Below, one piece after another: positions 1 through 60,829 of a stretch of 64,000 nucleotides of DNA. A program made the translations under genes and the position numbers. This stretch comes from Eledone cirrhosa (lineage: Eukaryota). Below the pieces are notes generated by a model. It had not been told where the DNA came from. It ran no database searches and worked only from the letters and a program-made list of their open reading frames with translations. Location of the stretch: NCBI GenBank assembly GCA_964016885.1, contig OZ024747.1:80290001-80354000 (forward strand), read 5' to 3'. The stretch's first letter is position 1. Each line of letters opens with the position of its first letter.

Positions 1-240
1 GGTAGAATATTAAATGTTAAGTGTTAATTGAACAACTACTTTCATGCTTTCGCAATCTTCAGGTTCATATTCAGTGGTAACAGTCAAGTTTGCAATTGCA
101 AACTTGTACAAATAAAACTTAACATTTAATATTCTACCATACTGTTTCATTATACTATCATTATAATTTTAAAGGATTTTAAATAAAATGAGTAAATCAG
201 ACAAAGTTGGAATTTCTTTTATAAATATAATCTTTTATAC
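1..240. mobile_element. Mini Penelope-like remnant: inverted arms (1-22 / 117-138) plus probable 3' tail; left end cut by window edge
   Basis: ggtagaatattaaatgttaagt at 1-22 is the reverse complement of acttaacatttaatattctacc at 117-138; internal palindrome caagtttgcaattgcaaacttg at 85-106; contains a minus-strand HHR-like motif. Confidence 0.5.
29..67 (-). ncRNA. Minimal type I hammerhead ribozyme motif (probably one stem III mutation)
   Basis: Minus strand reads tgaac-CTGAAGA-t-tgc(gaaa)gca-t-GAAA-gtag-TT-gttca: stem I tgaac/gttca, stem II capped by a GNRA loop, vestigial stem III (ACTAGT-like palindrome with one change). Confidence 0.55.
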
Positions 241-256
241 ACAATCATACACACCC

Positions 257-291
<35 letters not shown>

Positions 292-292
<1 letters not shown>

Positions 293-371
293 TCTCGCTG
301 ATGATGCCCGTGGATTATCTGTTACAAACACACTCAGGGCGAAACAGATTAATCCCTAATCTGTCCGAGAG
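292..371 (+). ncRNA. Canonical type I hammerhead ribozyme
   Basis: ctctcg-CTGATGA(298-304)-tgccc...gggc-GAAA(341-344)-cagatta-atccc-taatctG-TC(364-365)-cgagag; stem I 6 bp, stem II gccc/gggc, stem III 7 bp, GUC cleavage triplet at 363-365. Confidence 0.85.
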
Positions 372-605
372 ATATAATTGTTATTGAGGCGGTTTGTATA
401 ATATAATTTTATTTTATTTTATCATTGTCTGCTTCATGGTTAAATATTTCAAACAAATGTGGTTCTTCAACCCTCGTAATATTAGACACACGATTTACTG
501 TGTTTCTTACTACATATATTATTATAATGCTCAGTATTTATACTTTGAGGTTGTTGATTACAGGGTTTCAGTATGAGTTATTAACTCTAACTTTCATTTA
601 TATAT

Positions 606-3226: not shown

Positions 3227-3264
<38 letters not shown>

Positions 3265-3277
3265 ATGTATATATGTA

Positions 3278-3327
<50 letters not shown>

Positions 3328-3380
3328 GATAGATAGATATACGTTCATATACACACACACATATATATATATATATATAG

Positions 3381-4240
3381 ATAACTGAACAAAAAAGAAA
3401 AACGAACACAGACATATACATGTATGTGTTCAAACCGTAAGGGACCGGATTGGCTAAGGTGAAGAGAATACTAACTACAGACAATAGGGTTTGCTAGACT
3501 CAATTTAAGAATAAATCAATAAAAATAAATACCAACTAGAATTGTGGTAACTACCAATGACCCGGACAGTTTTGATAATACTGTTTCGCAATATTAATTG
3601 TGAAGTGGAATACCAAAATTCTAGCTCATCAGTGGATGAAGAATTATTAGTATCCTGGTCACTTCTAAGTATATTAAAATACTGGATAGTGTGCGTATAT
3701 ATAACGCACATGGTACCAGAACTTAGCGTGTCTCGCAAACTCACGCCACTAAAAATAGCAGCCGGGTTTACTCGACATTTGAATTAGCTCGACGAATTAA
3801 CGTAGCCGATTATATCAAAAGCATGTATTGAGTTAGAAACTCAAAATAGTCTCTTACAATAAAATTAGCTCTAGGAAAGAGGTTTTTCCGAGCCCTATAA
3901 TATAGATGAGCTAGAATTTTGGTATTCCTCTTCACAATTAATATTGCGAAACAGTATTATGAAAACTGTCCGGGTCATTGGTAGTTACCACAATTCTGGT
4001 TGGTATTTATTTTTATTGATTTATTCTTAAATTGAGTCGAGCAAACCCTATTGTCTATAGTTAGTATTCTCTTCACCTTAGCCAATCTGGTCCCTTACGG
4101 TTTGAACACATACATGTATATGTCTGTGCTCGTTTTTCTTTTTTGTTCAGTTATATTATACGGCTCGGAAAAACCTCATTTCTAGAGATAATTTTATTGT
4201 AAGAGACTATTTTGAGTTTCTAACTCAATTCATGCCTTTG

Positions 4241-4243
<3 letters not shown>
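3381..4243. mobile_element. Non-coding HHR-bearing element: complete ~521-bp monomer on minus strand (3384-3904) plus inverted partial copy (3905-4243)
   Basis: 3381-3630 is mirrored at 3905-4154 and 3811-3904 is mirrored at 4152-4243; flanked by (TA)n; no credible ORF. Confidence 0.85.
3560..3637 (-). ncRNA. Type I hammerhead ribozyme
   Basis: Minus strand reads atcca-CTGATGA-gc...gc-GAAA-cagt-attatcaaa-actG-TC-cgggt; stem III cagt/actg, GUC triplet (plus-strand gac 3565-3567), stem I with one A-C mismatch next to the core. Confidence 0.75.
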
Positions 4244-4314
<71 letters not shown>

Positions 4315-4710
4315 GTATATATATACATATATACACAGATACTTATCAGATAGACCAGGGGCTTGCGTCTCACTTACATACGTTACCACAATCAACAGAG
4401 AGTGACGGGTCTTGTTATTGTGGCGTCAGAGTAGCATGAACAAACAGCAACAACGTTATTAAGAGGGAAAATATGAAGCAAATAAAGGAAGAGATCTAGA
4501 ACGGTTATTTTTACACCTTCATTAGATATATACAAACAGGCCATATTAGTGTCCTCTTAGGAATGATACATTAAAAGTTTTATTTTTAAAGGTTAGGAAA
4601 CACTGAAGGCGTTCGTTATTTTTCCGATGAAACTTCGTAGAATTGTGAAACACGTATTCTGTATAATTCAATATGTAAGAGAGGAAATGAGAAATGACGA
4701 AATAATAATT

Positions 4711-5105
4711 GTTTCTACTTTTGGCACAAGGCCAGAAATTATCCCAGTGCATTACTGGTACTTTATTTTATCGAACCTGTAAGGATGAAAGGCAAAGTTA
4801 ACCTCGGCGGGATTTGGACTCAGACCATAAAGGCTGTAACTCTTTGCTGAAAGGCATGGTGTCCAACCCTCTACCGATCCAGGAAATAATAATGGTTTCT
4901 TATATAGGCACAAGGCCAGCAATTTCGGGGGAGGGGAAAGTAGATTAAATAGACCACAGTGTGTTACTGGGACTTTATTTATCGACCCCGTAAGGATGAA
5001 AGGCAAAGTTAACCTTGGCGGAATTTAATCTCTGACCATAGATGGCCGTAACTCTTTGCTGCAAGGCAATGGCGTCCGACCCTCTACCGAGACTGCTAAT
5101 CCACG
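4711..5105 (-). mobile_element. Two head-to-tail tRNA-derived SINE copies (octopus-type family 1)
   Basis: Shared core gccgaggttaactttgcctttcatcctta..ggtcgataaa..aagtaccagt and B-box-like ctgagttcaaatccc; gaaataataat repeated at all three junctions. Confidence 0.8.
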
Positions 5106-5626
5106 AAATAATAATGTTATTTGTTTTATTTCAATCCCAACGGGAAGAGAAAACAAAAATGGACGGATAAAAAAAGAGGAATTGGTATAGTTGATTTTAT
5201 ATATTCCTTAGATAATTTGCCATTGTGGTTATATAAATTTTTACATTTTATTTTTCTCCAAGAATTTCAGTTGAGTTTATTGAAAACAAAACAGACGGAT
5301 ATAATTTCTAAAAAAAAAAACAAAAAAAAACGCAAGAAAATTATCGAAAATCTGAAAATGTTATTGGAAAAAATAATAAAAGCCCACCTTACCCAATCTC
5401 CCAGACCGGAGAATGGATGACTCTTGTATGAAATGTTTAGAAAGATACAGAGATATATATATTGTTATTATGATTATTATTTGTAATATTATATTACTTT
5501 TAGCAATTATTGATATACGATGATCGAACTTAGATGTAACGTGTTTGGGTAGGTATAGGCACACACACATACACACACACACACATATATATATCCATAC
5601 ATATATACATATATACATATATATTC

Positions 5627-5908: not shown

Positions 5909-7208
5909 AGAATCAGGACCTCAACGGCTGAACTTCGGCCGTTTTGACAGCTAAATCAGAACTATGTATGTATATATATATATATATATATATAGGAACC
6001 AGTAAGACCCCGACAGCTGAGCTCAAGCCGTTTCGACGGCTAATTCAGGACTAAATGAAAATTTATCCTGGTATTTAAATAGCCGATCTTCTCAAGGGGT
6101 AATTCCATATATGGTCAAAGTGATTGTCAAAAATCAGTAGTAATTCTGTGGTTGCAAATTAGTAGGGGAGATGGTGGCTAAACCTGCCAGTAGGAGAAAG
6201 AGGGGAGGGGGTGGAGTAGACCCAATCAAGCGTTGGTAGTGCCAGCTACAGCTGGGCATGAGGTCAAAGAAGATACAGGGGAGGGGGAGGGGGAGGAAGT
6301 CGGAACGGTAGGTAGAACAATGGGGGGTAGAAATAGGAAAGAAAAAATACTGAGAGTGAAGAAAAGCAAATAAGTGTAAAGAAAAAGAAAAGTAAAGTAA
6401 ATTAAATTCAACGACCTAGGTGTCAGGCTATTGTTAGGCGAGAATAAAATAAAGAAAGAAAGAAAGAAGTAAATAAATAAATAAATAAATAAATAAGGAA
6501 ATAAGTAAGAGAACTAGGTGGGACGGATAAGGCAAGGACCCTTTTAAGAGGTATAAGTACGTAAATGATACGGTGACGGGTCAACAAAAGGGGCCAAAAT
6601 ACTAAAGAGACTACCACGAAATAAACAATAAAGGTTTCCATCCCGGGCCAGCAACGACCCAGTGCAGCAAAGTGAACTTGTACGAGATAATAATTCTGAG
6701 TCCCGGGAAAAATATATACTAATGCTAACTCTAAAAGATCTAAAACAAGCTACATGAAAGTTCGTACGAAATAAAGGTAGAATACGGAGAAATAAATTCA
6801 GAATCCACCCCGCCCAGAAGAAAAGCGAAGCAAGAAATACTGAAACGAAAAAATAAGGCATAAGTGCCACTAAGAAATATAGAGGGCACAGAGAATAGTG
6901 GGAGCGGTCGGAAAAAGGGGGAAAGTATCCGGGGTCTAAGCCAACTGCTATAAAGGGCGGAGTCCACCAAATCTATCAAAGACTAGGGGAGGGGGGGGGC
7001 TACTAAGGCTACATGGGGCCAAAGGGCAGCCTCGGGTGGGCGAGAAAAGACGCCGACAAAGGAGAAGAGCTGGGGTAGAAGGACAAAGGAGAGAGGGGGG
7101 AAGGAAATAAAGGAAGCGATAAAAGAATACAAAGAAGATCTTACGTCTTCCTTGGCAAGCAGGGGTTACCCATTGCAAAATCGGCAACTGGGGTGTTATA
7201 GCTCTAGT

Positions 7209-8183
7209 CTACCCCCCCGGGTCATTATGGGGTTTGAGGGCGAGGTAAGTCCTACGCAATCTATGTTTACATGCAGTAACCAGTTCATCTTTCTTGTTTA
7301 GGAGTTGGTCCGTCGAAAACAGCATTTGTAAAGTTTCCTCCGAGCATAAATTGCACGGACGGCGTCCTCCCGTGTAAGAATTGGCTCTGGACAGTAATCT
7401 CCAAGTGAGATCATAGGTGATGTTGTTGTCCTTGAGGTCCCATATGTGGCCCGAAAGTGTAGTGGCGTGACGCCGGGCCGGGTTTCGGAAGGTATGTCTA
7501 TGTTGGTATAGCCGGGTCTTGAAGTCACATGCGGTAAGTCCTATATAGGCTTTGTTGGAGGTATCCGTCCTCACGTTGCACTGGTAGATCACATTACGGT
7601 CTCTGCATCTATTGTCGAGTGGGCAAATAGATCTATCCGGGCAGTTACACCTCCTGGTCGGTTCTCCACTGCTAATTAGGTTATTTCGGCCATCGGGGTT
7701 GAGTTTTTTGTTGTTAGAGGAGACGATGTTTTGTGCGAAGTTTGGTGTAGTGCTGTAAGAGAGTTTGATGGTATTTTTGTTAATTATGTTGTGGTAGCGG
7801 TGTTGTAATGGGAAGTGTTTTTCAATGAGCCTAAAGAATAGTTTCCCGATCGGAGTAGTCACCTCTGCGTTGTGGGGAGGATTGAACCATGTTACATTGC
7901 GTGAGCGGCGGTGTCTCCTGCTGGTTCCGCTAATGGGAGCTGGGCAGTAGGATATTTCCTCCCGGAAACCACTCCGCTTGAGGGCCTGATTGTAATAAGG
8001 CGCATGTTCATCGAATATCCGCTCATTAGCTGACAAACGGGATATGCGGAGGGAGATGTTTTTGACCAGGTTGTTTGTGATGTTCCTAGGATGGTTTGAT
8101 CGGCGGTGGATGTAGTGCAGATTGTCATTAGGTTTCCTGTATGGGTAGTACAGGTCGTTTTCGAGATCGAGGGTTACGTCCAG
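7209..8183 (-). pseudogene. C-terminal part of Naiad-type PLE protein: RT thumb, linker and GIY-YIG endonuclease (5'-truncated, frame open)
   Basis: Frame extends upstream of the called ORF: LDVTLDLENDLYYPYRKPNDNLHYIHRRSNHP...; then WFNPP, KLSYS, CNC..CPLDNRC, VIYQC...AYIGLT..FKTRLYQH and CNLC.EE...LLNKKDELVTACKH. Confidence 0.9.
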
Positions 8184-8515
8184 GACTTACCGCATGTGAC
8201 TTCAAGACCCGGCTATACCAACATAGACATACCTTCCGAAACCCGGCCCGGCGTCACGCCACTACACTTTCGGGCCACATATGGGACCTCAAGGACAACA
8301 ACATCACCTATGATCTCACTTGGAGATTACTGTCCAGAGCCAATTCTTACACGGGAGGACGCCGTCCGTGCAATTTATGCTCGGAGGAAACTTTACAAAT
8401 GCTGTTTTCGACGGACCAACTCCTAAACAAGAAAGATGAACTGGTTACTGCATGTAAACATAGATTGCGTAGGACTTACCTCGCCCTCAAACCCCATAAT
8501 GACCCGGGGGGGTAG
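8182..8515 (+). pseudogene. Inverted duplicate of the GIY-YIG C-terminus of the same PLE
   Basis: Protein identical to the last ~110 aa of 7209-8036 (GLTACDFKTRLYQH...HNDPGG). Confidence 0.9.
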
Positions 8516-9671
8516 ACTAGGGCTATAACACCCCAGTTGCCGATTTTGCAATGGGTAACCCCTGCTTGCCAAGGAAGACGTAAGATCTTCTTTGTATTCT
8601 TTTATCGCTTCCTTTATTTCCTTCCCCCCTCTCTCCTTTGTCCTTCTACCCCAGCTCTTCTCCTTTGTCGGCGTCTTCTCTCGCCCACCCGAGGCTGCCC
8701 TTTGGCCCCATGTAGCCTTAGTACCCCCCCCCCCCCCCTAGTCTTTGATAGATTTGGTGGACTCCGCCCTTTATAGCAGTTGGCTTAGACCCCGGATACT
8801 TTCCCCCTTTTTCCGACCGCTCCCACTATTCTCTGTGCCCTCTATATTTCTTAGTGGCACTTATACCTTATTTTTTCGTTTCAGTATTTCTTGCTTCGCT
8901 TTTCTTCTGGGCGGGGTGGATTCTGAATTTATTTCTCCGTATTCTACCTTTATTTCGTACGAACTTTCATGTAGCTTGTTTTAGATCTTTTAGAGTTAGC
9001 ATTAGTATATATTTTTCCCGGGACTCAGAATTATTATCTCGTACAAGTTCACTTTGCTGCACTGGGTCGTTGCTGGCCCGGGATGGAAACCTTTATTGTT
9101 TATTTCGTGGTAGTCTCTTTAGTATTTTGGCCCCTTTTGTTGACCCGTCACTGTATCATTTACGTACTTATACCTCTTAAAAGGGTCCTTGCCTTAACCG
9201 TCCCACCTAGTTCTCTTACTTATTTCCTTATTTATTTATTTATTTATTTATTTACTTCTTTCTTTCTTTCTTTATTTTATTCTCGCCTAACAATAGCCTG
9301 ACACCTAGGTCGTTGAATTTAATTTACTTTACTTTTTCTTTTTCTTTACACTTATTTGCTTTTCTTCACTCTCAGTATTTTTTCTTTCCTATTTCTACCC
9401 CCCATTGTTCTACCTACCGTTCCGTCTTCCTCCCCCTCCCCCTCCCCTGTATCTTCTTTGACCTCATGCCCAGCTGTAGCTGGCACTACCAACGCTTGAT
9501 TGGGTCTACTCCACCCCTCCCCTCTTTCTCCTACTGGCAGGTTTAGCCACCATCTCCCCTACTAATTTGCAACCACAGAATTACTACTTATTTTTGACAA
9601 TCACTTTGACCATATATGGAATTACCCCTTGAGAAGATCGGCTATTTAAATACCAGGATAAATTTTCATTT

Positions 9672-9718
9672 AGTCCTGAATTAGCCGTCGAAACGGCTTG
9701 AGCTCAGCTGTCGGGGTC
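9672..9718 (+). ncRNA. Variant hammerhead-like motif in the Naiad terminal repeat (mirror copy at ~6006-6052, minus)
   Basis: gtc-CTGAATTA-gccgtc-GAAA-cggct-tgagctc-agctG-TC-gggg; stem III pairs and is kept in diverged copies, but the core is non-canonical and stems I and II are weak. Confidence 0.4.
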
Positions 9719-9808
9719 TTACTGGTTCCTATTACCCACTCTACTACCTCAAGTATTGAGTACTTTGGTGCGTTATGGTCCACCTGGTTCCTTACCACAT
9801 TTCCTTCG

Positions 9809-9861
<53 letters not shown>

Positions 9862-10315
9862 TATATATACATATATACATACATATATAGGCGTGTGTAT
9901 GATCGTAAACACTTTTGTTATTTAATTCCAATCAATTATACTACTGGAAAAGAAACAAACAACAATTTCACATCTTATCGTGCAAGATTTCCATCATATG
10001 ATTTGCTTTAAAGTTTTTCATTTGTTTTTAGCAAGTCTTCACATTTTACAGATGTTATTTAGGTAATTGTATTCTTTTCCCTGATCTATTCATCCTTTCC
10101 CCATTTCCCCAAGCAAGTATTTTTCAATGTGTTTCGCATTATTATTATAAATGAATTTTAATCAATTATTTTCACACAATTTTTCGACTATTTTTCCCCA
10201 CAAAATATTTAGTCGAAAAAGAATACAGATATACATCTAGATAATTTATATTAACATTCAAATATATTCACATATAGGTATTAATCTATGTATGTATATA
10301 TATATATATATATAT

Positions 10316-10499
10316 ATAGGAACCAGTAAGACCCCGACAGCTGAGCTCAAGCCGTTTCGACGGCTAATTCTTTAGCCGTCGAAACGGCTTGAGCTCAGCT
10401 GTCGGGGTCTTACTGGTTCCTATTACCCACTCTACTACCTCAAGTATTGAGTACTTTGGTGCGTTATGGTCCACCTGGTTCCTTACCACATTTCCTTCG

Positions 10500-10501
<2 letters not shown>
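10316..10501 (+). mobile_element. Miniature copy of the Naiad terminus (52-bp inverted arms plus 78-nt tail)
   Basis: Same left end (tataggaaccagtaag) and same tail as 5992-9810; in (TA)n. Confidence 0.9.
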
Positions 10502-10549
<48 letters not shown>

Positions 10550-47700: not shown

Positions 47701-48633
47701 CCACGCTGTATACGAACACACATAAACAAACAAACACACAGGCAGAAAGGGCCCCAAAAATGAATAAGCATAAGTTTCATTGTAATGTAGTGTTCGAATG
47801 TCTGACTTAGTTTTTGTTTTTTAAGTTTTAGTTTTTCCCCCCTCTTCTCTGTCCGTCCGCCTGCTTCTCTCTTCATTCTTATTTTCTTTACGTTTTTTGG
47901 GTTTTTTGTTTTTTTTTTGTTTTTGTTTTCTCTGTTTGTTTTTCTCGTTTTTTGCTGTTGTTGCTGTGCTGCTTTGGTTTTGTTGTTTGTTTTTTCTTTT
48001 TTCTTTTGAGTCTATCTATATATTTTGATGCCTTCCTCTTTTTTAGCAGTAGGGATTCTATAATGAGGTGGCAGCAGCCAGCTAAAGAAGTGGGAGACTG
48101 GCGGCGGTAGCGATACTGAGACAGTGGTGGTGGTGATGTCGATACCGAGGCAGTGGTGGCGGTGATGTGACCGTATTACTGTAGTGATGGTGCTGTAGCG
48201 GTGGTAGCAGTGAAGGAGTGAAGGGGTGGTGGCGGCGGTGATGGGATAATGGTTGTAATGATGGCCGTAGTGAGCGGTGGTGGTTTAGTGTACACAGGTG
48301 ATGGGGTGGGTGGTGTATCTAGTTTCTGGTGTTGGTGAGTTTGGCTGTTCTATATAGTGTAGACAGAGGAGGAGGGGGGGGGGTTTCTTCTTCCATTTAT
48401 AGCCATTTTCTTTTTTGGATATACAGTGTACAATACAAAGTTGAATATTTGAATATTTGAGCCTTATAACAATATATTTTGGGTCCGAATTTTTTGGGGC
48501 TCAAGCCGGGTGCTTTACGTAGCATTTGTACTAAGAGTTGTTATTTCACAAATGATTTAAATATGTTAAAAATTCAAAACTTACGGGAGCGATTTCATGA
48601 CCTCCGTCACCTCGTGCGTCTTCTTCCCTTAAT

Positions 48634-48683
<50 letters not shown>

Positions 48684-48899
48684 GAATGCCATGGTTGACG
48701 GAGGCTCGGCTCTGTAAGGTATAGTAATTTTTAACCGTTAAAACAATTGTAAATTGTTTAAAACTTGAACCAAATTGTTGATAAAGACACCCTCCTCCTC
48801 GTGAGAGGGGTCTTTCTGTCCGTTATTTGGCCCTTCGGGGTTGAATAACCAGTTGTTGGGGTTTTGTACCCAAAGTTTCATTTTAAACAAAAAAACAAC

Positions 48900-50997
48900 A
48901 TGGCTACGAAAAAGAAATTTCATACGTCACTCCCACTCATTCCGTCTTCTTCTTCCTCAATCATCACTACAGCAGAGAGAAGATTGTCTCTCTCCCTCCC
49001 TTCTTTAAATGTGTCTCTCTCCCTCCCTTCTCTTTCGCAAGTGACGAAAGAAAAGAAAAGTCTCGTGCAAAGCGTGCAAGGTTTCTCCACGACGACGACG
49101 ACAGCGACGAAACAGGTGTGCGGGAAATACGAAAACCCAGTTCATTCGTCTGACGTCAGGAATAATAGCAGTAGCAGCCGTAATAACAACAGCAACAGTG
49201 ACAATGAAAACAACAGTAGCAGCCGCAACAGCATCACCAGCAGCATAAACAACAACAGCATTAGCAGCAGCAACACCAACAACAACCACAGCAACAGCGG
49301 CGGAGGCAGTAGTCGTAGTACCTGCAGCAACAACAAAAGTACCAGCAGCTCTAACGACAACAACAACAGCAGAGAAAAACCAATCTCATTTGCAGGTATT
49401 GCGAAAAACTTGGAAACAATCCTCATAACAAATGAGGAATTAGAGGAAGCGAAGAAGATGGTGACAAAGAACGGACACCGAGCAATCTGCAAGGCAGCGA
49501 AAAATTTTTTCGAAACCCAAGAGCACTGTACGGTCACGTACCGTACAGTAAGTACAAAATCCCGTAGGGTGGAAAGAGCCACAGAGGCCCAAATACAAAA
49601 AGCCTTGGGGTCTGTGTGGCAGAGGAAAACGCACATCACCCGAGGCAAAAAATACGCCACCGTAGACGTACTTTTTGCCACACCCCAGGAGGCAAAGGCC
49701 CAATCAGTAGTGACCCTAAGGAGCGAGGAAATGGTGTTGGTGCCCTCCTACTGCGGGCAAAAAATTGTGAGGGTCAAACTGACCCACGTCCCCCCCCGGA
49801 ATGACCCCTTCTTGGCTGGCCGCGTCTGTCCTCGTCGGAATCGAGGACAAAACAACTGTACTGCAAGTACAGAAAAAAGTAAGAGAAGATTGGGTCGGCT
49901 CCTCCATTGAGATGCTAATCCAAACCAACCAGGAGTGCATCGAAGCTATCCCGGATGTGATAGACTTCGATAACGGCACTCAACTGCCCATAAGTGTTGA
50001 GGGCAAACGCCCGAAATGCTTTCGCTGTGGATCGAAGACTCACCTCAGGGCCTTCTGCAACGAGAAGACCCTGAGAAAGGAGAAAACCCCCCTCCTTCCG
50101 AATCCGGCTCCACGGCTACCAGCAACAGGACAAGCGGCAACCAGGAACGATAGGTCCGTGGCACCCATACCCACTCCACAGAAATCAAAGACAGCAGCAG
50201 CAGTGGAAATATTAACAACAACAACAGCAATACCAAATGCAGCTGCAACAGAGACTCCAGTGCAAACATCACCAACAACAACAAGTGAAAGAGTGGAGCT
50301 GGTACCCCTCCCCGACCTTACAGAATCAGACATGGAGTGTGAGGTGGGAGAGGGATGGCAAAAGGTCACAAGAAGGCACAAACGCAGAAGCAGCGCATCG
50401 TCGCCTTTGAAAAGGGAGGAAAGAAATGAGAAAAGGGTAAAGTCTACTGCAAAGAGACCCACAGCAGCAACACCACCAACACCATCACCACCCACACCAG
50501 CACCACCATCACCACCGGCGACAACCCCACCGCCAACAACACCTTCAACACCACCACCACAAGCACCAACATCGCAAACACAACAACAAAACACACACAC
50601 CCAGCAACAACGACAAGAAAATAGCAGAACCACACCCCACCCCCAGAAAAACAAATGCACGGCAATAAACACACACAACAAGAAACTAATGATATATATA
50701 TTTGAACACACAGACATTTCACAACAGGACTACATAATACCAGCACCAATCAAAACGCCAACTAACATAAGACTGCTAAAAATAGCACAGAAACAATACA
50801 CAAACATTAAAACGAAATTCCCCAACGCAGTAGGTGATTTCAGGGACCTAGGAGGAACCATCAATCGAAGAGTATATTCAGACATTCTCTTAGAAGAGCC
50901 GACGACCAGCCGAAGGGACGATTCAACGGTCCCTTCACCAGACGATCAAGTGAAAAGGGATGTAAAAACCATCCCTCCTCTACCAAAAGTACGGTAA
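48900..50997 (+). pseudogene. ORF1 (gag-like, CCHC knuckle) with +1 frameshift in the C run at ~49790-49797
   Basis: Matches 54970-57066 except one extra C; CFRCGSKTHLRAFC. Confidence 0.9.
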
Positions 50998-51032
50998 GTG
51001 GTCTTTCCCATCTTTTCCACTCTATTTTAAAC

Positions 51033-54000
51033 ATGACCTCACTCAGAATAGGCAGCATAAATGCGCGTGGCTTGGGGTCGTCATGGAAGCAGGGTCACCT
51101 GCTCAACGACCTCAGGTCACTAAACATAGATGTAGTGGCCATCAGCGAGACCAGAATCTCCGAAGCACGGGCCTTCGCACCGATCTTCGGCGGCTACGAT
51201 GTGTACGCATCTCCCAGCCGTCCTGGATCGGGTGGAGGAGTTGCTGTGCTTTTTCGGAGAGGTTTGGATCTCGCCATACGGGCCATCTTCCTGGACCCAG
51301 AGGGTAAGCTGGTGGTGCTGGACGTGACCAGCGGAGACGGGCAAGCTTTCAGGCTAGTGGCCGTCTATGCCCCGACAGGAGCAGGGCGGCCTGATTTCTT
51401 CCGGCGTCTGGAGACCTTTCTTGGAACGTCCCGCTCTTTAGTGTTAGTGGGCGACTGGAACGGGATCTTAGATGCACGCTGGGACTGTGTGGGATTAGCG
51501 GATAGGGGTGGAGGGTGCAAGAGCCTCACCAACCTGCTCAGGCGTTTTGAACTGTCTGACAGGTACCGATTGGATTTCCCGAATGTGCCAATGTGGACTT
51601 GGACAAACCGCATAGGGTCATCCAGATCATATCTAGATAGAGTATTTTGTAGGGAAATAGATAGGTCTAGCATAGGCTGTCCACAATTCAAGATAGTCAG
51701 CTACACGGACCACAAATTCGTGACCTGTATGCTTGACTTAGATAGGCTTCATAGACGAGGACCCGGCTACTGGAAGCTAAACGCGTCCTTACCAGCGCGC
51801 AAGGCCTACAGAGACCGGATTAGCGAACTAGTTAAGCGGGCGTTGACGGGGGCCATCGTCAACAACAAGTGGTGGTTTGCTCTGAAAAGAGCGATTAGAA
51901 TAGAATCGATTAGGTTTAGTAAGGCTTTAGCAATAGAGAAAAATAGAGCAGAGGGAGAACTAGTTAGAAAATTAGACGAGGCGCTTAGCAAAGGCATTGC
52001 GACCGACGTGCTTGCGGCGAAATTGGCCCTTGACCAATTCTTCAATGCAAAGCACGAAGGCTGCGTTGTCAGAGCTAGGGTGCGTGCTCTCAGACACGAG
52101 GGGACGAAAGCCGTTCAATGGGCCCGAGTGGCGGAGGCGCGTCGTGGCAACAAAGCCACGATCCGGTCTTTGGTGGACCACGACGGGCGCATGCTACTCG
52201 ATCCCGGGCAAATGTGTGAAGCTTTTCAGCGACACTTCGCTCAGCTGTTCGGGGGCAGCGGGGGGCCGGGTAGAGGGATGGACTTTAGTGTCTACCTCGA
52301 CGGACTGCCGCGGCTCTCGGCCACTGAGGCGAAGTGTTGCGAAAAGCCGATAACAGCCGCTGAAGTAAGGGAGGCAATGACTGGCTGCACAAGGGGCAAA
52401 TCGCCTGGTTTGGATGGTCTGCCCTATGAACTTTACGTACAGATGCCAGACTTGTTCGGAGGCCTCTTGGCGGACGTCTACTGCAACTGGCAACAGAACG
52501 GGAGAATTCCCAGTTCTGTGAGCCGAGGAGCGGTGGCACTGCTGAGAAAGGATCCGAACAAGGGGGATAACATAGACAATTTCCGGCCCATAACTCTGCT
52601 AAACACAGAGTTTAAGATTTTGGCCAAGGTGCTAGCAAAGAGGTTGGCGCCTGTCGTTGGTGGTCTGGTGGGAGAGGCGCAGACATGCGCCATTCCCGAC
52701 AGATCCATCCACGACAACCTCCACCTCATGCGATACATCGTAGAGAGGGTAGCTAGGGAACCTGGCACGGGTGGGTCCTTGATCAATTTAGATCAGTCGA
52801 AAGCTTTCGATAGGGTCGACCATCGTTACCTAGCGGCAGTCCTGAGGGCGGCTGGCTTTGGGCCCGTCTTCAGAGGCTGGATCGCTGCCATGCACAGCGA
52901 CATCTGCTCTGTGGTGAGAGTGAACGGTCACCTGTCGGAACCGTTCAACATCATGCGCTCGGTCCGCCAAGGATGTCCCCTCTCGTCCCTCTTGTACGTA
53001 TTGACTCTCGAGCCATTACTGCACAAACTGGAGACGTTGAGGGGAGTCCCGCGCGAACTAGGATGCGGAAGATCCGTGTCAGCATATGCGGACGATGTCA
53101 CCGTAGTGGTGTCGAACGCCAAACACATCGAGGCGATCGGCACTACACTAAGAGAATACGAAGCGGTGACAGGAGCAATGATCAACCAGGAAAAGTCAGT
53201 GGGCCTGCAGCTCGGCACCTGGAGAGGCAGGTCCATGCCGTCCAACAGCGTCGTCGGGCGCTGGACGGACGGACCGGTTAAATTGCTAGGGGTCTGGTTC
53301 GGTCCGGACCTCCAGACGGACAAAAACTGGGACGAGGTGACGATCAGGGTGGCTTCTCTCACCCAGAAATGGGCGGAGAGGAAGCTATCCCTGAAAGGTC
53401 GAGCGGAGGTGGCTAACGCGTACATCGCGTCTGTCATCTGCTACCGCCTAACCGTCGTACCTTGTCCTAAGCCTCGCCTGACTGCGCTGGAGCGTTTGCT
53501 CTTTCGCTTTTTGTGGAAGGGACGTGCTCCGATGGTCAGGCGGTCCATCTGTTGTCAACACCCGCTACGTGGAGGGCTGGGCATGCCGTGGCTGATGATG
53601 CGCAGGCACGCGCTCAGGCTACGACATCTCCACCTCTTCCTCGACGGTGATCAGGTGTGGTCGCCGTTTGCTAGACGCGTTTTTCCCCAGCTCGTTTCCT
53701 TGACGGAGCTGCAGTCCTGGGTCAAGCGAAGACCGAGAGGGAGCGCCTGGAGACTGGAATGTCTTCAGGCGCTCACAGCCCTCGACCAATCGGGCAATGT
53801 GATCGGTGGAAACTCCACCTCGGCGTTCTATAGAGGATTAGTGGAGGGGAAGAGCGACGACGTACTTGGGGAAACTCTAGGCGTCGACGAAAATCAACTA
53901 GCCAATCTCTTCGGAAGAACTTTCGGGCCAGGGCCTATGGACAACTTCCAGAAATCTCTGGCCTGGCAGTGCTACCGAGGAGCCTTGCCAGTTCGGGATA

Positions 54001-54452
54001 AACTCTACAGGCATGGAGGTGCCGTCAGCCGGGCATGTCCGAGATCCGCGCAGGGCGACGAAACCGTCCTGCACGCACTCGTCCAGTGTCCGAAAATTGC
54101 TGACTTGTGGGTTTATGTCGAACACCTGCTGTCGCGTTTAGGACGGATCCAGCTATCATCTGAGTCTATCGTGAGGATTGCCCCGCCCTCCTCATTTAGC
54201 CGGGAAGGGCAGGCAGTTTTTATCTGTCTGGTGGCCATGGCGAAAGAGATAGTATGGTGGACACGTTTGAAAGGGCTGAAGACGAGCACTTACCTCTTCG
54301 GTGATGCTCTGATTGACTTTTTCAAATTTCATTTGAAAAGGAAAATCAGAGTAGAGAAGGAAGTGCTCTCTTCCCAGCATTTTGTTGAAAGATGGGTGAG
54401 AGAAGCAAGAATGGCCCGAGTGAATGGGCCGACTCTGAGTATATATCTGTAA
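51033..54452 (+). CDS. ORF2: APE endonuclease + reverse transcriptase, 1139 aa (C-terminal knuckle CPRS instead of CPRC)
   Basis: SINARGL, ISET, VYAP, GDWN, YLDR, TDH; DQSKAFDRV, RQGCPLS, YADD. Confidence 0.95.
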   Translation: MTSLRIGSINARGLGSSWKQGHLLNDLRSLNIDVVAISETRISEARAFAPIFGGYDVYASPSRPGSGGGVAVLFRRGLDLAIRAIFLDPEGKLVVLDVTSGDGQAFRLVAVYAPTGAGRPDFFRRLETFLGTSRSLVLVGDWNGILDARWDCVGLADRGGGCKSLTNLLRRFELSDRYRLDFPNVPMWTWTNRIGSSRSYLDRVFCREIDRSSIGCPQFKIVSYTDHKFVTCMLDLDRLHRRGPGYWKLNASLPARKAYRDRISELVKRALTGAIVNNKWWFALKRAIRIESIRFSKALAIEKNRAEGELVRKLDEALSKGIATDVLAAKLALDQFFNAKHEGCVVRARVRALRHEGTKAVQWARVAEARRGNKATIRSLVDHDGRMLLDPGQMCEAFQRHFAQLFGGSGGPGRGMDFSVYLDGLPRLSATEAKCCEKPITAAEVREAMTGCTRGKSPGLDGLPYELYVQMPDLFGGLLADVYCNWQQNGRIPSSVSRGAVALLRKDPNKGDNIDNFRPITLLNTEFKILAKVLAKRLAPVVGGLVGEAQTCAIPDRSIHDNLHLMRYIVERVAREPGTGGSLINLDQSKAFDRVDHRYLAAVLRAAGFGPVFRGWIAAMHSDICSVVRVNGHLSEPFNIMRSVRQGCPLSSLLYVLTLEPLLHKLETLRGVPRELGCGRSVSAYADDVTVVVSNAKHIEAIGTTLREYEAVTGAMINQEKSVGLQLGTWRGRSMPSNSVVGRWTDGPVKLLGVWFGPDLQTDKNWDEVTIRVASLTQKWAERKLSLKGRAEVANAYIASVICYRLTVVPCPKPRLTALERLLFRFLWKGRAPMVRRSICCQHPLRGGLGMPWLMMRRHALRLRHLHLFLDGDQVWSPFARRVFPQLVSLTELQSWVKRRPRGSAWRLECLQALTALDQSGNVIGGNSTSAFYRGLVEGKSDDVLGETLGVDENQLANLFGRTFGPGPMDNFQKSLAWQCYRGALPVRDKLYRHGGAVSRACPRSAQGDETVLHALVQCPKIADLWVYVEHLLSRLGRIQLSSESIVRIAPPSSFSREGQAVFICLVAMAKEIVWWTRLKGLKTSTYLFGDALIDFFKFHLKRKIRVEKEVLSSQHFVERWVREARMARVNGPTLSIYL

Positions 54453-54713
54453 ACTAAAGGTGGAAAACTGGGAGAGGGCACTTGCCTTGGTGGTCAGGGT
54501 CATTGTGGCTTTTTACTGGGCTTTCTCCACAAACGTCCCTCCGAAGTCTCCCCCCTATTGGGGAATTTTTCATTGTTATTTTCATTGTTATTTTTGTTAC
54601 ATCCTCTGTTTTTGTTTTTTTTACACGCAGAAATGCCCATTTGTACCGTCCTGCATTGTCCTGCACTGTCCTTAATGTCTACTTTATGTAAACCCTTGTG
54701 GTTAATAAAGAAA

Positions 54714-54754
<41 letters not shown>

Positions 54755-54969
54755 GAATGCCATGGTTGACGGAGGCTCGGCTCTGTAAGGTATAGTAATT
54801 TTTAACCGTTAAAACAATTGTAAATTGTTTAAAACTTGAACCAAATTGTTGATAAAGACACCCTCCTCCTCGTGAGAGGGGTCTTTCTGTCCGTTATTTG
54901 GCCCTTCGGGGTTAAATAACCAGTTATTGGGGTTTTGTACCCAAAATTTCATTTTAAACAAAAAACAAC

Positions 54970-57066
54970 ATGGCTACGAAAAAGAAATTTCATACGTCAC
55001 TCCCACTCATTCCGTCTTCTTCTTCCTCAATCATCACTACAGCAGAGAGAAGATTGTCTCTCTCCCTCCCTTCTTTAAATGTGTCTCTCTCCCTCCCTTC
55101 TCTTTCGCAAGTGACGAAAGAAAAGAAAAGTCTCGTGCAAAGCGTGCAAGGTTTCTCCACGACGACGACGACAGCGACGAAACAGGTGTGCGGGAAATAC
55201 GAAAACCCAGTTCATTCGTCTGACGTCAGGAATAATAGCAGTAGCAGCCGTAATAACAACTGCAACAGTGACAATGAAAACAACAGTAGCAGCCGCAACA
55301 GCATCACCAGCAGCATAAACAACAACAGCATTAGCAGCAGCAACACCAACAACAACCACAGCAACAGCGGCGGAGGCAGTAGTCGTAGTACCTGCAGCAA
55401 CAACAAAAGTACCAGCAGCTCTGACGACAACAACAACAGCAGAGAAAAACCAATCTCATTTGCAGGTATTGCGAAAAACTTGGAAACAATCCTCATAACA
55501 AATGAGGAATTAGAGGAAGCGAAGAAGATGGTGACAAAGAACGGACACCGAGCAATCTGCAAGGCAGCGGAAAAATTTTTCAAAACCCAAGAGCACTGTA
55601 CGGTCACGGACCGTACAGTAAGTACAAAATCCCGTAGGGTGGAAAGAGCCACAGAGGCCCAAATACAAAAAGCCTTGGGGTCTGTGTGGCAGCGGAAAAC
55701 GCACATCACCCGAGGCAAAAAATATGCCACCGTAGACGTACTTTTTGCCACACCCCAGGAGGCAAAGGCCCAATCAGTAGTGACCCTAAGGAGCGAGGAA
55801 ATGGTGTTGGTGCCCTCCTACTGCGGGCAAAAAATTGTGAGGGTCAAACTGACCCACGTCCCCCCCGGAATGACCCCTTCTTGGCTGGCCGCGTCTGTCC
55901 TAATCGGAATCGAGGACAAAACAACTGTACTGCAAGTACAGAAAAAAGTAAGAGAAGATTGGGTCGGCTCCTCCATTGAGATGCTAATCCAAACCAACCA
56001 GGAGTGCATCGAAGCTATCCCGGATGTGATAGACTTCGATAACGGCACTCAACTGCCCATAAGTGTTGAGGGCAAACGCCCGAAATGCTTTCGCTGTGGA
56101 TCGAAGACTCACCTCAGGGCCTTCTGCAACGAGAAGACCCTGAGAAAGGAGAAAACCCCCCTCCTTCCGAATCCGGCTCCACGGCTACCAGCAACAGGAC
56201 AAGCGGCAACCAGGAACGATAGGTCCGTGGCACCCATACCCACGCCACGGAAATCAAAAACAGCAGCAGCAGTGGAAATATTAACAACAACAACAGCAAT
56301 ACCAAATGCAGCTGCAACAGAGACTCCAGTGCAAACATCACCAACAACAACAAGTGAAAGAGTGGAGCTGGTACCCCTCCCCGACCTCACAGAATCAGAC
56401 ATGGAGTGTGAGGTGGGAGAGGGATGGCAAAAGGTCGCAAGAAGGCACAAACGCAGAAGCAGCGCATCGTCGCCTTTGAAAAGGGAGGAAAGAAATGAGA
56501 AAAGGGTGAAGTCTACTGCAAAGAGACCCACAGCAGCAACAACACCAACACCATCACCACCCACACTAGCACCACCATCACCACCGGCGACAACCCCACC
56601 GCCAACAACACCTTCAACACCACCACCACAAGCACCAACATCGCAAACACAACAACAAAACACACACACCCAGCAACAACGACAAGAAAATAGCAGAACC
56701 ACACCCCACCCCCAGAAAAACAAATGCACGGCAATAAATACACACAACAAGAAACTAATGACTTACATAATTGAACACACAGACATTTCACAACAGGACT
56801 ACATAATACCAGCACCAATCAAAACGCCAACTAACATAAGACTGCTAAAAATAGCACAGAAACAATACACAAACATTAAAACGAAATTCCCCAACGCAGT
56901 TGGTGATTTCAGGGACCTAGGAGGAACCATCAATCGAAGAGTATACTCAGACATTCTCTTAGAAGAGCCGACGACCAGCCGAAGGGACGATTCAACGGTC
57001 CCTTCACCAGACGATCAAGTGAAAAGAGATGTAAAAACCATCCCTCCTCTACCAAAAGTACGGTAA
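54970..57066 (+). CDS. ORF1 gag-like nucleic-acid-binding protein, 698 aa
   Basis: Intact ORF; CX2CX4HX4C knuckle; Ser/Asn-rich and Pro/Thr-rich low-complexity segments; W.KV.RRHKRR basic patch. Confidence 0.92.
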   Translation: MATKKKFHTSLPLIPSSSSSIITTAERRLSLSLPSLNVSLSLPSLSQVTKEKKSLVQSVQGFSTTTTTATKQVCGKYENPVHSSDVRNNSSSSRNNNCNSDNENNSSSRNSITSSINNNSISSSNTNNNHSNSGGGSSRSTCSNNKSTSSSDDNNNSREKPISFAGIAKNLETILITNEELEEAKKMVTKNGHRAICKAAEKFFKTQEHCTVTDRTVSTKSRRVERATEAQIQKALGSVWQRKTHITRGKKYATVDVLFATPQEAKAQSVVTLRSEEMVLVPSYCGQKIVRVKLTHVPPGMTPSWLAASVLIGIEDKTTVLQVQKKVREDWVGSSIEMLIQTNQECIEAIPDVIDFDNGTQLPISVEGKRPKCFRCGSKTHLRAFCNEKTLRKEKTPLLPNPAPRLPATGQAATRNDRSVAPIPTPRKSKTAAAVEILTTTTAIPNAAATETPVQTSPTTTSERVELVPLPDLTESDMECEVGEGWQKVARRHKRRSSASSPLKREERNEKRVKSTAKRPTAATTPTPSPPTLAPPSPPATTPPPTTPSTPPPQAPTSQTQQQNTHTQQQRQENSRTTPHPQKNKCTAINTHNKKLMTYIIEHTDISQQDYIIPAPIKTPTNIRLLKIAQKQYTNIKTKFPNAVGDFRDLGGTINRRVYSDILLEEPTTSRRDDSTVPSPDDQVKRDVKTIPPLPKVR

Positions 57067-57101
57067 GTGGTCTTTCCCATCTTTTCCACTCTATTTTAAA
57101 C

Positions 57102-60100
57102 ATGACCTCCCTCAGAATAGGCAGCATAAATGCGCGTGGCTTGGGGTCGTCATGGAAGCAGGGTCACCTGCTCAACGACCTCAGGTCACTAAACATAGAT
57201 GTAGTGGCCATCAGCGAGACCAGAATCTCCGAAGCACGGGCCTTCGTACCGATCTTCGGCGGCTACGATGTGTACGCATCTCCCAGCCGTCCTGGATCGG
57301 GTGGAGGAGTTGCTGTGCTTTTTCGGAGAGGTTTGGATCTCGCCATACGGGCCATCTTCCTGGACCCAGAGGGTAAGCTGGTGGTGCTGGACGTGACCAG
57401 CGGAGACGGGCAAGCTTTCAGGCTAGTGGCCGTCTATGCCCCGACAGGAGCAGGGCGGCCTGATTTCTTCCGGCGTCTGGAGACCTTTCTTGGAACGTCC
57501 CGCTCTTTAGTGTTAGTGGGCGACTGGAACGGGATCTTAGATGCACGCTGGGACTGTGTGGGATTAGCGGATAGGGGTGGAGGGTGCAAGAGCCTCACCA
57601 ACCTGCTCAGGCGTTTTGAACTGTCTGACAGGTACCGATTGGATTTCCCGAATGTGCCAATGTGGACTTGGACAAACCGCATAGGGTCATCCAGATCATA
57701 TCTAGATAGAGTATTTTGTAGGGAAATAGATAGGTCTAGCATGGGCTGTCCACAATTCAAGATAGTCAGCTACACGGACCACAAATTCGTGATCTGTGTG
57801 CTTGACTTAGATAGGCTTCATAGACGAGGACCCGGCTACTGGAAGCTAAACGCGTCCTTACCAGCGCGCAAGGCCTACAGAGACCGGATTAGCGAACTAG
57901 TTAAGCGGGCGTTGACGGGGGCCATCGTCAACAACAAGTGGTGGTTTGCTCTGAAAAGAGCGATTAGAATAGAATCGATTAGGTTTAGTAAGGCTTTAGC
58001 AATAGAGAAAAATAGAGCAGAGGGAGAACTAGTTAGAAAATTAGACGAGGCGCTTAGCAAAGGCATTGCGACCGACGTGCTTGCGGCGAAATTGGCCCTT
58101 GACCAATTCTTCAATGCAAAGCACGAAGGCTGCGTTGTCAGAGCTAGGGTGCGTGCTCTCAGACACGAGGGGACGAAAGCCGTTCAATGGGCCCGAGTGG
58201 CGGAGGCGCGTCGTGGCAACAAAGCCACGATCCGGTCTTTGGTGGACCACGACGGGCGCATGCTACTCGATCCCGGGCAAATGTGTGAAGCTTTTCAGCG
58301 ACACTTCGCTCAGCTGTTCGGGGGCAGCGGGGGGCCGGGTAGAGGGATGGACTTTAGTGTCTACCTCGACGGACTGCCGCGGCTCTCGGCCACTGAGGCG
58401 AAGTGTTGCGAAAAGCCGATAACAGCCGCTGAAGTAAGGGAGGCAATGACTGGCTGCACAAGGGGCAAATCGCCTGGTTTGGATGGTCTGCCCTATGAAC
58501 TTTACGTACAGATGCCAGACTTGTTCGGAGGCCTCTTGGCGGACGTCTACTGCAACTGGCAACAGAACGGGAGAATTCCCAGTTCTGTGAGCCGAGGAGC
58601 GGTGGCACTGCTGAGAAAGGATCCGAACAAGGGGGATAACATAGACAATTTCCGGCCCATAACTCTGCTAAACACAGAGTTTAAGATTTTGGCCAAGGTG
58701 CTAGCAAAGAGGTTGGCGCTTGTCGTTGGTGGTCTGGTGGGAGAGGCGCAGACATGCGCCATTCCCGACAGATCCATCCACGACAACCTCCACCTCATGC
58801 GATACATCGTAGAGAGGGTAGCTAGGGAACCTGGCACGGGTGGGTCCTTGATCAATTTAGATCAGTCGAAAGCTTTCGATAGGGTCGACCATCGTTACCT
58901 AGCGGCAGTCCTGAGGGCGGCTGGCTTTGGGCCCGTCTTCAGAGGCTGGATCGCTGCCATGCACAGCGACATCTGCTCTGTGGTGAGAGTGAACGGTCAC
59001 CTGTCGGAACCGTTCAACATCATGCGCTCGGTCCGCCAAGGATGTCCCCTCTCGTCCCTCTTGTACGTATTGACTCTCGAGCCATTACTGCACAAACTGG
59101 AGACGTTGAGGGGGGTCCCGCGCGAACTAGGATGCGGAAGATCCGTATCAGCATATGCGGACGATGTCACCGTAGTGGTGTCGAACGCCAAACACATCGA
59201 GGCGATCGGCACTACACTAAGAGAATACGAAGCGGTGACAGGAGCAATGATCAACCAGGAAAAGTCAGTGGGCCTGCAGCTCGGCACCTGGAGAGGCAGG
59301 TCCATTCCGTCCAACAGCGTCGTCGGACGCTGGACGGACGGACCGGTTAAATTGCTAGGGGTCTGGTTCGGTCCGGACCTCCAGACGGACAAAAACTGGG
59401 ACGAGGTGACGAGCAGGGTGGCTTCTCTCACCCAGAAATGGGCCGAGAGGAAGCTATCCCTGAAAGGTCGAGCGGAGGTGGCTAACGCGTACATCGCGTC
59501 CGTCATCTGCTACCGCCTGACCGTCGTACCTTGTCCTAAGCCTCGCCTGACTGTGCTGGAGCGTTTGCTCTTTCGCTTTTTGTGGAAGGGACGCGCTCCG
59601 ATGGTCAGGCGGTCCATCTGTTGTCAACACCCGCTACGTGGAGGGCTGGGCATGCCGTGGCTGATGATGCGCAGGCACGCGCTCAGGCTACGACATCTCC
59701 ACCTCTTCCTCGACGGTGATCAGGTGTGGTCGCCGTTTGCTAGACGCGTGTTTCCCCAGCTCGTTTCCTTGACGGAGCTGCAGTCCTGGGTCAAGCGAAG
59801 ACCGAGAGGGAGCGCCTGGAGACTGGAATGTCTTCAGGCGCTCACAGCCCTCGACCAATCGGGCAATGTGATCGGTGGAAACTCCACCTCGGCGTTCTAT
59901 AGAGGATTAGTGGAGGGGAAGAGCGACGACGTACTTGGGGAAACTCTAGGCGTCGACGAAAATCAACTAGCCAATCTCTTCGGAAGAACTTTCGGGCCAG
60001 GGCCTATGGACAACTTCCAGAAATCTCTGGCCTGGCAGTGCTACCGAGGAGCCTTGCCAGTTCGGGATAAACTCTACAGGCATGGAGGTGCCGTCAGCCG

Positions 60101-60521
60101 GGCATGTCCGAGATGCGCGCAGGGCGACGAAACCGTCCTGCACGCACTCGTCCAGTGTCCGAAAATTGCTGACTTGTGGGTTTATGTCGAACACCTGCTG
60201 TCGCGTTTAGGACGGATCCGGCTATCACCTGAGTCCATCGTGAGGATTGCCCCGCCCTCCTCCTTTAGCCGGGAAGGGCAGGCAGTTTTTATCTGCCTGG
60301 TGGCCATGGCGAAAGAGATAGTATGGTGGACACGTTTGAAAGGGCTGAAGACGAGCACTTACCTCTTCGGTGATGCTCTGATTGACTTTTTCAAATTTCA
60401 TTTGAAAAGGAAAATCAGAGTAGAGAGGGAAGTGCTCTCTTCCCAGCATTTTGTTGAAAGATGGGTGAGAGAAGCAAGAATGGCCCGAGTGAATGGGCCT
60501 ACTCTGAGCATATATCTGTAA
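57102..60521 (+). CDS. ORF2: APE endonuclease + reverse transcriptase + C-terminal CCHC, 1139 aa
   Basis: All APE and RT motifs present; CPRC...ETVLHALVQC intact. Confidence 0.95.
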   Translation: MTSLRIGSINARGLGSSWKQGHLLNDLRSLNIDVVAISETRISEARAFVPIFGGYDVYASPSRPGSGGGVAVLFRRGLDLAIRAIFLDPEGKLVVLDVTSGDGQAFRLVAVYAPTGAGRPDFFRRLETFLGTSRSLVLVGDWNGILDARWDCVGLADRGGGCKSLTNLLRRFELSDRYRLDFPNVPMWTWTNRIGSSRSYLDRVFCREIDRSSMGCPQFKIVSYTDHKFVICVLDLDRLHRRGPGYWKLNASLPARKAYRDRISELVKRALTGAIVNNKWWFALKRAIRIESIRFSKALAIEKNRAEGELVRKLDEALSKGIATDVLAAKLALDQFFNAKHEGCVVRARVRALRHEGTKAVQWARVAEARRGNKATIRSLVDHDGRMLLDPGQMCEAFQRHFAQLFGGSGGPGRGMDFSVYLDGLPRLSATEAKCCEKPITAAEVREAMTGCTRGKSPGLDGLPYELYVQMPDLFGGLLADVYCNWQQNGRIPSSVSRGAVALLRKDPNKGDNIDNFRPITLLNTEFKILAKVLAKRLALVVGGLVGEAQTCAIPDRSIHDNLHLMRYIVERVAREPGTGGSLINLDQSKAFDRVDHRYLAAVLRAAGFGPVFRGWIAAMHSDICSVVRVNGHLSEPFNIMRSVRQGCPLSSLLYVLTLEPLLHKLETLRGVPRELGCGRSVSAYADDVTVVVSNAKHIEAIGTTLREYEAVTGAMINQEKSVGLQLGTWRGRSIPSNSVVGRWTDGPVKLLGVWFGPDLQTDKNWDEVTSRVASLTQKWAERKLSLKGRAEVANAYIASVICYRLTVVPCPKPRLTVLERLLFRFLWKGRAPMVRRSICCQHPLRGGLGMPWLMMRRHALRLRHLHLFLDGDQVWSPFARRVFPQLVSLTELQSWVKRRPRGSAWRLECLQALTALDQSGNVIGGNSTSAFYRGLVEGKSDDVLGETLGVDENQLANLFGRTFGPGPMDNFQKSLAWQCYRGALPVRDKLYRHGGAVSRACPRCAQGDETVLHALVQCPKIADLWVYVEHLLSRLGRIRLSPESIVRIAPPSSFSREGQAVFICLVAMAKEIVWWTRLKGLKTSTYLFGDALIDFFKFHLKRKIRVEREVLSSQHFVERWVREARMARVNGPTLSIYL

Positions 60522-60782: not shown

Positions 60783-60829
<47 letters not shown>

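Follow-up and report, generated by a model that had tools for sequence, protein, structure and literature searches.

The window, a 64,000-nt stretch of the Eledone cirrhosa genome (C7:80290001-80354000), contains at 3384..3904 (minus strand) one full 521-nt unit of a non-coding repeat, here called family A, with unit positions u1-521 running from 3904 down to 3384. The unit opens with segment T (u1-94; 3811..3904, minus), the PLE-type tail sequence between two fixed 3' ends, and continues through a non-coding middle segment with several predicted hairpins (u95-265; 3640..3810, minus) and a type I hammerhead motif (3558..3639, minus) into segment E (u348-521; 3384..3557, minus), which leads from the hammerhead to the untailed 3' end at 3384; the 5' end of this copy is truncated at u1. 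An inverted, 5'-truncated arm on the plus strand (u275-521; 3905..4151) is 97% identical to the minus arm, with 7/247 mismatches over u275-521, and passes unbroken at 4152 into a 94-nt tail (u1-94; 4152..4245, plus), which ends in the second fixed 3' end and differs from the other T copy of the locus at 6 of 94 positions. The insertion target on the left is a (TA)n-rich microsatellite (3248..3383), and a (TA)n/(CA)n microsatellite forms the right flank (4246..4333). The order of T, middle, type I hammerhead and E from 3904 to 3384 on the minus strand, as given in the initial annotation, is thereby confirmed, as is the PLE-type insertion scar in (TA)n that it had described, with microsatellite on both sides and both tail and inverted arm in place.

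The hammerhead of the minus arm has the intact core that had been noted there (CUGAUGA..GAAA..GUC): the 5' strand of stem I occupies 3639-3633, the core 3632-3626 and the GAAA 3587-3584, the GUC precedes a predicted cut at 3565/3564 (after u340), and the 3' strand of stem I follows at 3564-3558. Two stem I pairs are broken, one of them adjoining the core, and for this reason the hammerhead fold lies 24 kcal/mol above the minimum-energy fold of the window copy, compared with 8 for another copy (L007); Rfam scans of the window and of 3400-4230 reported no hammerhead. On the plus strand the hammerhead is missing the 5' strand of stem I together with C3 and U4, its sequence starting only at G5 of the core, so that the earlier description of the plus arm as hammerhead, E and T is right about E, which does run unbroken into T, and wrong about a complete hammerhead. 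With a single hammerhead whose stem I is broken, the window copy is likely an inactive, decayed insertion and no source. The join of the unit's end to its own start, taken in the initial annotation as the signature of a tandem or circular template, is real but is an ordinary PLE tail; tails of this kind also occur in autonomous PLEs of this genome, and alone the join does not show a circle. The unit has a GC content of 35% and no LTR-element signals, and it is ORF-less as first described: read twice in tandem, its longest ATG ORFs are 68 aa (sense) and 76 aa (antisense), its two longest stop-to-stop frames have no credible Pfam match, and it has no similarity to nine PLE proteins of this genome (best E 0.63).

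This unit belongs to a dispersed, circularly permuted, ORF-less 521-bp family that is present hundreds of times in the genome. A DNA search of the 3.0-Gb genome returned 3,044 candidates, and the 40 that were scored all hold a near-full unit at 89-100% identity; the best 30 copies diverge on average by 4.8% from their own majority sequence. Exact genome-wide matches number 129 for the 26-nt junction of E and T and 497 for the 17-nt hammerhead 5' motif, with 0 matches for the reversed-pattern controls of either, and because decayed copies escape exact patterns we estimate that the family truly numbers in the low thousands of segments. The copies with a period near 520 bp that the initial annotation had proposed to look for thus exist. 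All 31 exact matches to a 30-mer of the window's subfamily are dispersed, none with a same-strand neighbour, and hence no master array of tandem units was seen; nothing but isolated pairs at unit spacing occurs in the first 100 places listed for the junction and for the hammerhead matches. Many matching short contigs are present in three contig sets from one sample, from which nothing on expression follows.

How these copies end was surveyed in 120 family A loci, which yielded 171 distinct arms in 100 insertions; the loci were chosen by similarity or motifs, which favours long copies but not the pairing of E with tail ends. Seventy-five arms end at u75-100 (55 of them exactly at u94), 68 at the E end and 28 elsewhere, and the two fixed 3' ends lie 94 nt apart, whereas 5' arm ends vary freely. 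A (TA)4 stands within 25 nt beyond 63/75 tail ends and 55/68 E ends (118/143 together), compared with 11.4% of 16,212 random flank positions. Both strands are represented in 59/100 insertions, all 59 arranged head to head; one E end is paired with one tail end in 42/44 of the inverted insertions with two classifiable ends (binomial 5.6e-11 against independent choice), the other 15 having an unclassifiable end. Many loci also carry a partial unit in line with a full one, that is, a pseudo-LTR partial tandem. The two start sites are rich in TA, and no more than a few bases beyond each stands a short candidate motif, RCTC, in family A, in its sister families B, C and H (see below) and in the window's young autonomous PLE; in one Neptune-type family RCTC follows the first site. 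Clusters of 5' ends at u1 and u442-481 in family A and at u63-85 in family B coincide with TA-rich stretches, and we read them as microhomology joins and as no proof of exact unit-length circles.

On this anatomy, family A is very probably a PLE-driven non-autonomous retroelement. That proposal, a non-autonomous hammerhead element with PLE-type ends, was already made in the initial annotation and has come through both computational checks: periodic copies are found, and in none of the loci examined does a copy lead from T or the middle segment into the ORF of a PLE. One may ask whether the copies merely derive from an autonomous PLE, as its 5'-truncated ends or through one-off deletions, given that most PLE insertions are 5'-truncated, that a tail and inverted arms are generic PLE features, and that PLE protein similarity lies within 1.5 kb at 39/181 family loci. 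This explanation is largely refuted already, and we regard it as highly improbable. Among 30 junction-picked loci (including two pairs that are the same or a duplicated insertion), T stops at u92-95 in 24; in the other 6 the middle segment follows, and no locus leads into an ORF. Upstream of all 30 hammerhead-picked loci lies family sequence or a truncation. Together with the lack of similarity to PLE proteins, these observations indicate that the unit is not the end of an ORF-bearing element. The neighbouring PLE pieces moreover come from many families and are mostly set apart by (TA)n, and a long history of its own is evident from the subfamilies and sister families. Equally small is the chance that the repeat spreads at the DNA level, as a satellite (by unequal crossing-over), a fold-back or a MITE-like element, or else as a SINE moved by LINEs, the hammerhead being a passenger. 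The inverted arms do look like terminal inverted repeats, and local tandem amplification from a pLTR has been proposed by Li et al. (bioRxiv 10.64898/2026.07.22.740005); against this, copies are dispersed on many chromosomes, arms vary freely in length on their 5' side while their 3' ends are fixed, the inverted arms always point outward with unlike ends (E and tail), and there is no poly(A) or other LINE-type 3' end.

Which PLE might provide the protein? The genome holds many PLE families, and active-looking ones with the same end anatomy are abundant. An autonomous PLE sharing alignable sequence with the unit was found in none of the 50 loci examined of 150 listed GIY-YIG loci (10,596 candidates), and 30 loci of the young PLE, 10 extended neighbours and 20 loci of one older family likewise contained only nested independent insertions. 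Family-like matches in six GIY-YIG loci (L125, L143, L150, L217, L230 and L231) were rejected as PLE ends, being separate (TA)n insertions on either strand. At L059, L194 and L249 a family arm abuts a 5'-truncated autonomous PLE with little or no (TA)n, each time a PLE of a different family; these joins are possibly template switches or later insertions, and the PLE family at L249, surveyed at 20 loci, shares no ends with the unit. By anatomy the closest element is a very young autonomous PLE that lies in the window itself as a complex inverted insertion (5993-10504; ORF piece at 7212-8186, minus). It encodes a full protein of 784 aa at another locus (L111), for which Pfam-A has no match, is represented by at least 123 scored copies that are 99-100% identical, and has an 80-nt tail, (TA)n ends and, at one place, a four-unit tandem (L121-L122); its full-size hammerheads in the window, at 6100-6007 (minus) and 9624-9717 (plus), have U3-A8. 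It was rejected as the partner since it shares no sequence with the unit. Several other PLE families of the genome have 40-66-nt tails and minimal hammerheads; we call them Neptune-type, a label taken from their Cys-rich linker and the accessible text of PMC8557442, homologue search and Pfam having given no clade name.

The hammerhead core varies less than the unit as a whole. Across 51 family A units the core is intact in 38, of which 23 also keep all 14 stem pairs; core columns vary by 2.3% against a unit average of 6.3%, and 94.7% of the hammerhead pair cells in the alignment are paired. Twenty two-sided changes fall on three pairs, one adjoining the core (G-C/A-U) and two in stem III, and 0/500 shuffles came as high, in a control that ignores the relatedness of copies; the number of covarying pairs within the family, only three, was attained by 285/500 shuffles. 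RNAalifold on the 51 decayed copies gave a weak fold that did not recover the hammerhead, the hammerhead fold is not the minimum-energy one even in a copy with intact stem I, and the folding z-score is -5.0 in one copy but -1.55 in another. Stronger support for the maintenance of the hammerhead comes from sister families with different, fully paired stems I than from family A alone.

Family A is one of at least six related families with units of 474-559 bp, its sisters having been recognised as nested insertions. Family B (559 bp) is 70% and family C (512 bp) 81% alike to A, and families D and E are represented by single loci; in all four the stems I differ and pair fully, which points to type I hammerhead stems kept by compensatory change. 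In family B, C3-G8 is replaced by U3-A8 in all 17 parsed of 21 units, a swap already known in PLE hammerheads (PMC4209133, accessible part). Family H (about 474 bp) has a copy in the window at 292-598 (plus), a 5'-truncated copy of a circularly permuted hammerhead unit; its search gave 2,431 candidates, of which 40 were scored, at 91-100%. Its profile similarity to family A is weak and lies around T and the hammerhead, and the middle segment of A is homologous in B, C and D and weakly so in H. Hammerhead units that are more remote but share the flanking motifs occur at L269:530-885, L267:3379-3462 and L005:450-541, single loci that possibly represent families F and G. Taken together, the families appear to form an undescribed superfamily of non-coding hammerhead retroelements with the full PLE insertion pattern.

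What is the template of these insertions, a hammerhead-made circle or an uncut tandem transcript? This long-standing question, as it concerns PLEs at large, becomes testable with a unit of about 520 nt that many insertions run round more than once. Of 45 junction-picked family A arms, 26 run across the cut site, 3 do so twice and a single one ends within 10 nt; for all 131 family A arms with a proper end the corresponding numbers are 98, 14 and 3, and of 38 family B arms 7 cross twice and one three times. No indel was seen at the cut column in 51 units. Since cDNAs pass u341 without a pile-up, the template would have been circular or uncut, and no cut linear monomer. In family C, for which the arm sample was picked with a short query, the 40-nt bin with the cut site holds 9 stops for 31 arms at risk, 3 of them within 10 nt. 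Two hammerheads in line occur in a minority of arms (14/131 in A, 7/38 in B), and the window locus has one core. The longest array seen, of family B, comprises 3.3 head-to-tail units (L207:1270-3065; C2:326751674-326753474); these are 95% alike to each other and 95-97% to sister loci, and being no closer to each other than to sister loci they do not reflect recent local duplication. Identity within an insertion exceeded that to the best other locus in only 11/20 cases, a result that fits a circle and a tandem transcript alike.

Given mobilisation by a PLE, these data incline us moderately towards a circular template. The alternative that deserves most attention keeps the same PLE-mobilised element but takes as template the linear, uncut read-through of a source with the structure pLTR-middle-pLTR-tail, in effect a miniature PLE, and assigns the hammerhead to another step, for instance trimming or terminating transcripts. 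We think this less likely than not, though several observations fit it: no family A arm is longer than about 1.6 units plus tail, second-round cDNAs of this family end by u202 (38 second-round ends; longest arm 841 nt), which would also fit a linear template with a fixed start, and the missing pile-up at the cut site fits a linear uncut template equally. For the Poseidon PLE in vitro, uncut RNA was the main substrate, and no RNA-seq reads ended at the cut site (PMC11167929). The linear alternative accounts less readily for family B, in which arms span two and three whole units (L153, L188 and L207), indicating that this family is without a fixed 5' limit. Nor was a long tandem master seen for the window's subfamily; the hammerhead, with its full stem III, could act as a monomer, and it is conserved across families that are only 70-81% alike.

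Returning to the circular template, we propose the following model, in which a non-coding 521-bp hammerhead family is copied into (TA)n by a PLE reverse transcriptase-endonuclease from circular RNA, a combination that we consider a little better than evenly supported. A source copy with two in-line hammerheads would be transcribed and cut twice, and the released monomer (u341 round to u340) would be ligated. The PLE protein would bind the circle near T and nick both strands of a (TA)n tract, and cDNA synthesis would be primed internally at the two UA-rich sites, likely with help from base pairing between the template and the nicked (TA)n end. If one strand is primed at each site, the two cDNAs would meet head to head, giving an insertion with one tailed and one untailed end. 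Their length would decay roughly geometrically, and the minority that exceeds 1.35 rounds would regenerate a two-hammerhead source. More tentatively, at somewhat less than even odds, we suggest an ancient and so far undescribed radiation of parasitic circular RNAs of viroid size, with at least six families (474-559 nt) and thousands of copies. They would encode nothing apart from a hammerhead and a docking site for a PLE, and their insertions would record how PLE integration proceeds, through two primings on opposite strands of (TA)n, one at each UA-rich site marked by RCUC.

Several hammerhead satellites of animals, in newt, Schistosoma (SM-alpha) and Dolichopoda (pDo500), consist of type I units of several hundred base pairs in tandem arrays. 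Unlike these, the longest array found here has 3.3 units. The satellites are cited among metazoan hammerhead reports in the accessible part of PMC4209133, where a circle-templated PLE cDNA of more than unit length was proposed in 2014. Closer relatives are the non-LTR retrozymes, tandem type I hammerhead repeats expressed as circles, for which PLEs have been proposed as movers (PMC7229834, accessible text) and which Li, Clavereau & Pollet regard as non-autonomous PLE derivatives, arguing from co-occurrence and pLTR trees in 31 vertebrates, three insects and a coral and leaving the mechanism open (bioRxiv 10.64898/2026.07.22.740005). Family A resembles them in its short, non-coding, low-GC (35%) unit with one type I hammerhead, in the occurrence of some head-to-tail repeats and in its co-occurrence with PLEs, and PLE mobilisation and rolling-circle cDNA were proposed there (PMC7229834, accessible text; bioRxiv 10.64898/2026.07.22.740005). 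At 521 nt the unit is longer than the 170-400 nt given by Cervera & de la Pena 2020 (PMC7229834, accessible text) and falls within the 51-972 bp of Li et al. In contrast to the dimer-to-multimer arrays of retrozymes, family A consists mostly of dispersed, sub-dimeric insertions with fixed PLE-type ends. Expression and circles have been shown for the retrozymes and are proposed here for family A, whose hammerhead has a 5-bp stem III and a long loop II. PLE mobilisation is based on co-occurrence and pLTR trees for retrozymes and on insertion anatomy for family A, which seems to work like a PLE-mobilised retrozyme.

The known PLE pattern comprises a partial tandem, an inverted 5'-truncated copy, a tail often at one end only and a bias for microsatellites (PMC8557442, accessible text); the 94-nt tail of family A compares with 30-40 bp quoted for PLEs in the same source. 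Non-autonomous PLEs have been noted in Chlamydomonas (PMC8557442, accessible text) and short non-autonomous Penelope elements in Heliconius (PMC6685494, accessible text). The MRC1-type Chlamys elements of the former and the Penelope elements of the latter share with family A the lack of an ORF, pLTR-like partial tandems, head-to-tail multicopy insertions and microsatellite bias. However, according to the accessible text of PMC8557442, the 3' ends of non-autonomous Chlamys are generally similar to those of their autonomous partners, whereas for family A no partner similarity was found in the loci examined, and most Chlamys are without canonical hammerheads, whereas a conserved hammerhead is central to family A. 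For PAc, the Poseidon PLE of Anolis, in vitro experiments showed that reverse transcription starts at two internal sites and that the tail is the stretch between them; uncut RNA was used, hammerhead cleavage not being needed (Frangieh et al. 2024, PMC11167929). Family A shares with PAc two internal start sites that bound the tail, AT-rich targets, the (for family A proposed) cutting and extension of both strands and a hammerhead near the tail. PAc encodes its own protein, whereas family A codes for none; PAc start sites are described as not homologous to the cut DNA and as equal between strands (PMC11167929), whereas those of family A are UA-rich like the (TA)n target and serve one strand each in 42/44 inverted insertions.

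What, then, is new? A description of family A was not found in the literature searched, a scope with Repbase/Dfam and most subscription journals outside it, where a consensus may stand unnamed or Penelope-labelled; the term "ribozyme" is absent from the main text of a recent octopus repeat annotation, as far as the accessible part extends (PMC13282606). The earlier remark that no description of the family was known therefore stands for the family within that literature; the general idea is in print (PMC7229834, accessible text; bioRxiv 10.64898/2026.07.22.740005). Retrozymes had already been proposed as non-autonomous PLE derivatives; the novelty lies in the insertion-level evidence and in the undescribed superfamily. 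PLE mobilisation of animal retrozymes has so far been argued from co-occurrence and from similar pLTRs; a non-coding family that carries the complete PLE insertion pattern provides direct genomic evidence for mobilisation in trans. The rule of one tailed and one untailed end (42/44) constrains any model of PLE integration, as does the conservation of the hammerhead in a parasite devoid of any ORF whose processing it could serve. Should the reading as a radiation of RNA parasites be correct, the unit would serve PLE reverse transcriptase as a minimal trans-acting substrate, and the RCUC motif at the start sites would be common to autonomous PLEs of the same genome.

Other repeats accompany the family A copy in the window. 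The 3' untranslated end of a Neptune-type PLE, with matches at L152 and L217, lies at 1-260 (plus) directly before (TA)n, and minimal type I hammerheads of other PLE ends are present at 821-936, as an inverted pair in (TA)n, and also at 23081, 27754, 30322 and 61795 (minus). A SINE-like repeat (family D19) that recurs very often in the loci examined is present twice at 4700-5110, its copies lying 211 bp apart. From about 47900 to 61000, two near-identical blocks about 6 kb apart mark a local duplication, visible in matching tandem-repeat rows and motif matches at 53768/59837, 52873/58942 and 54276/60345.
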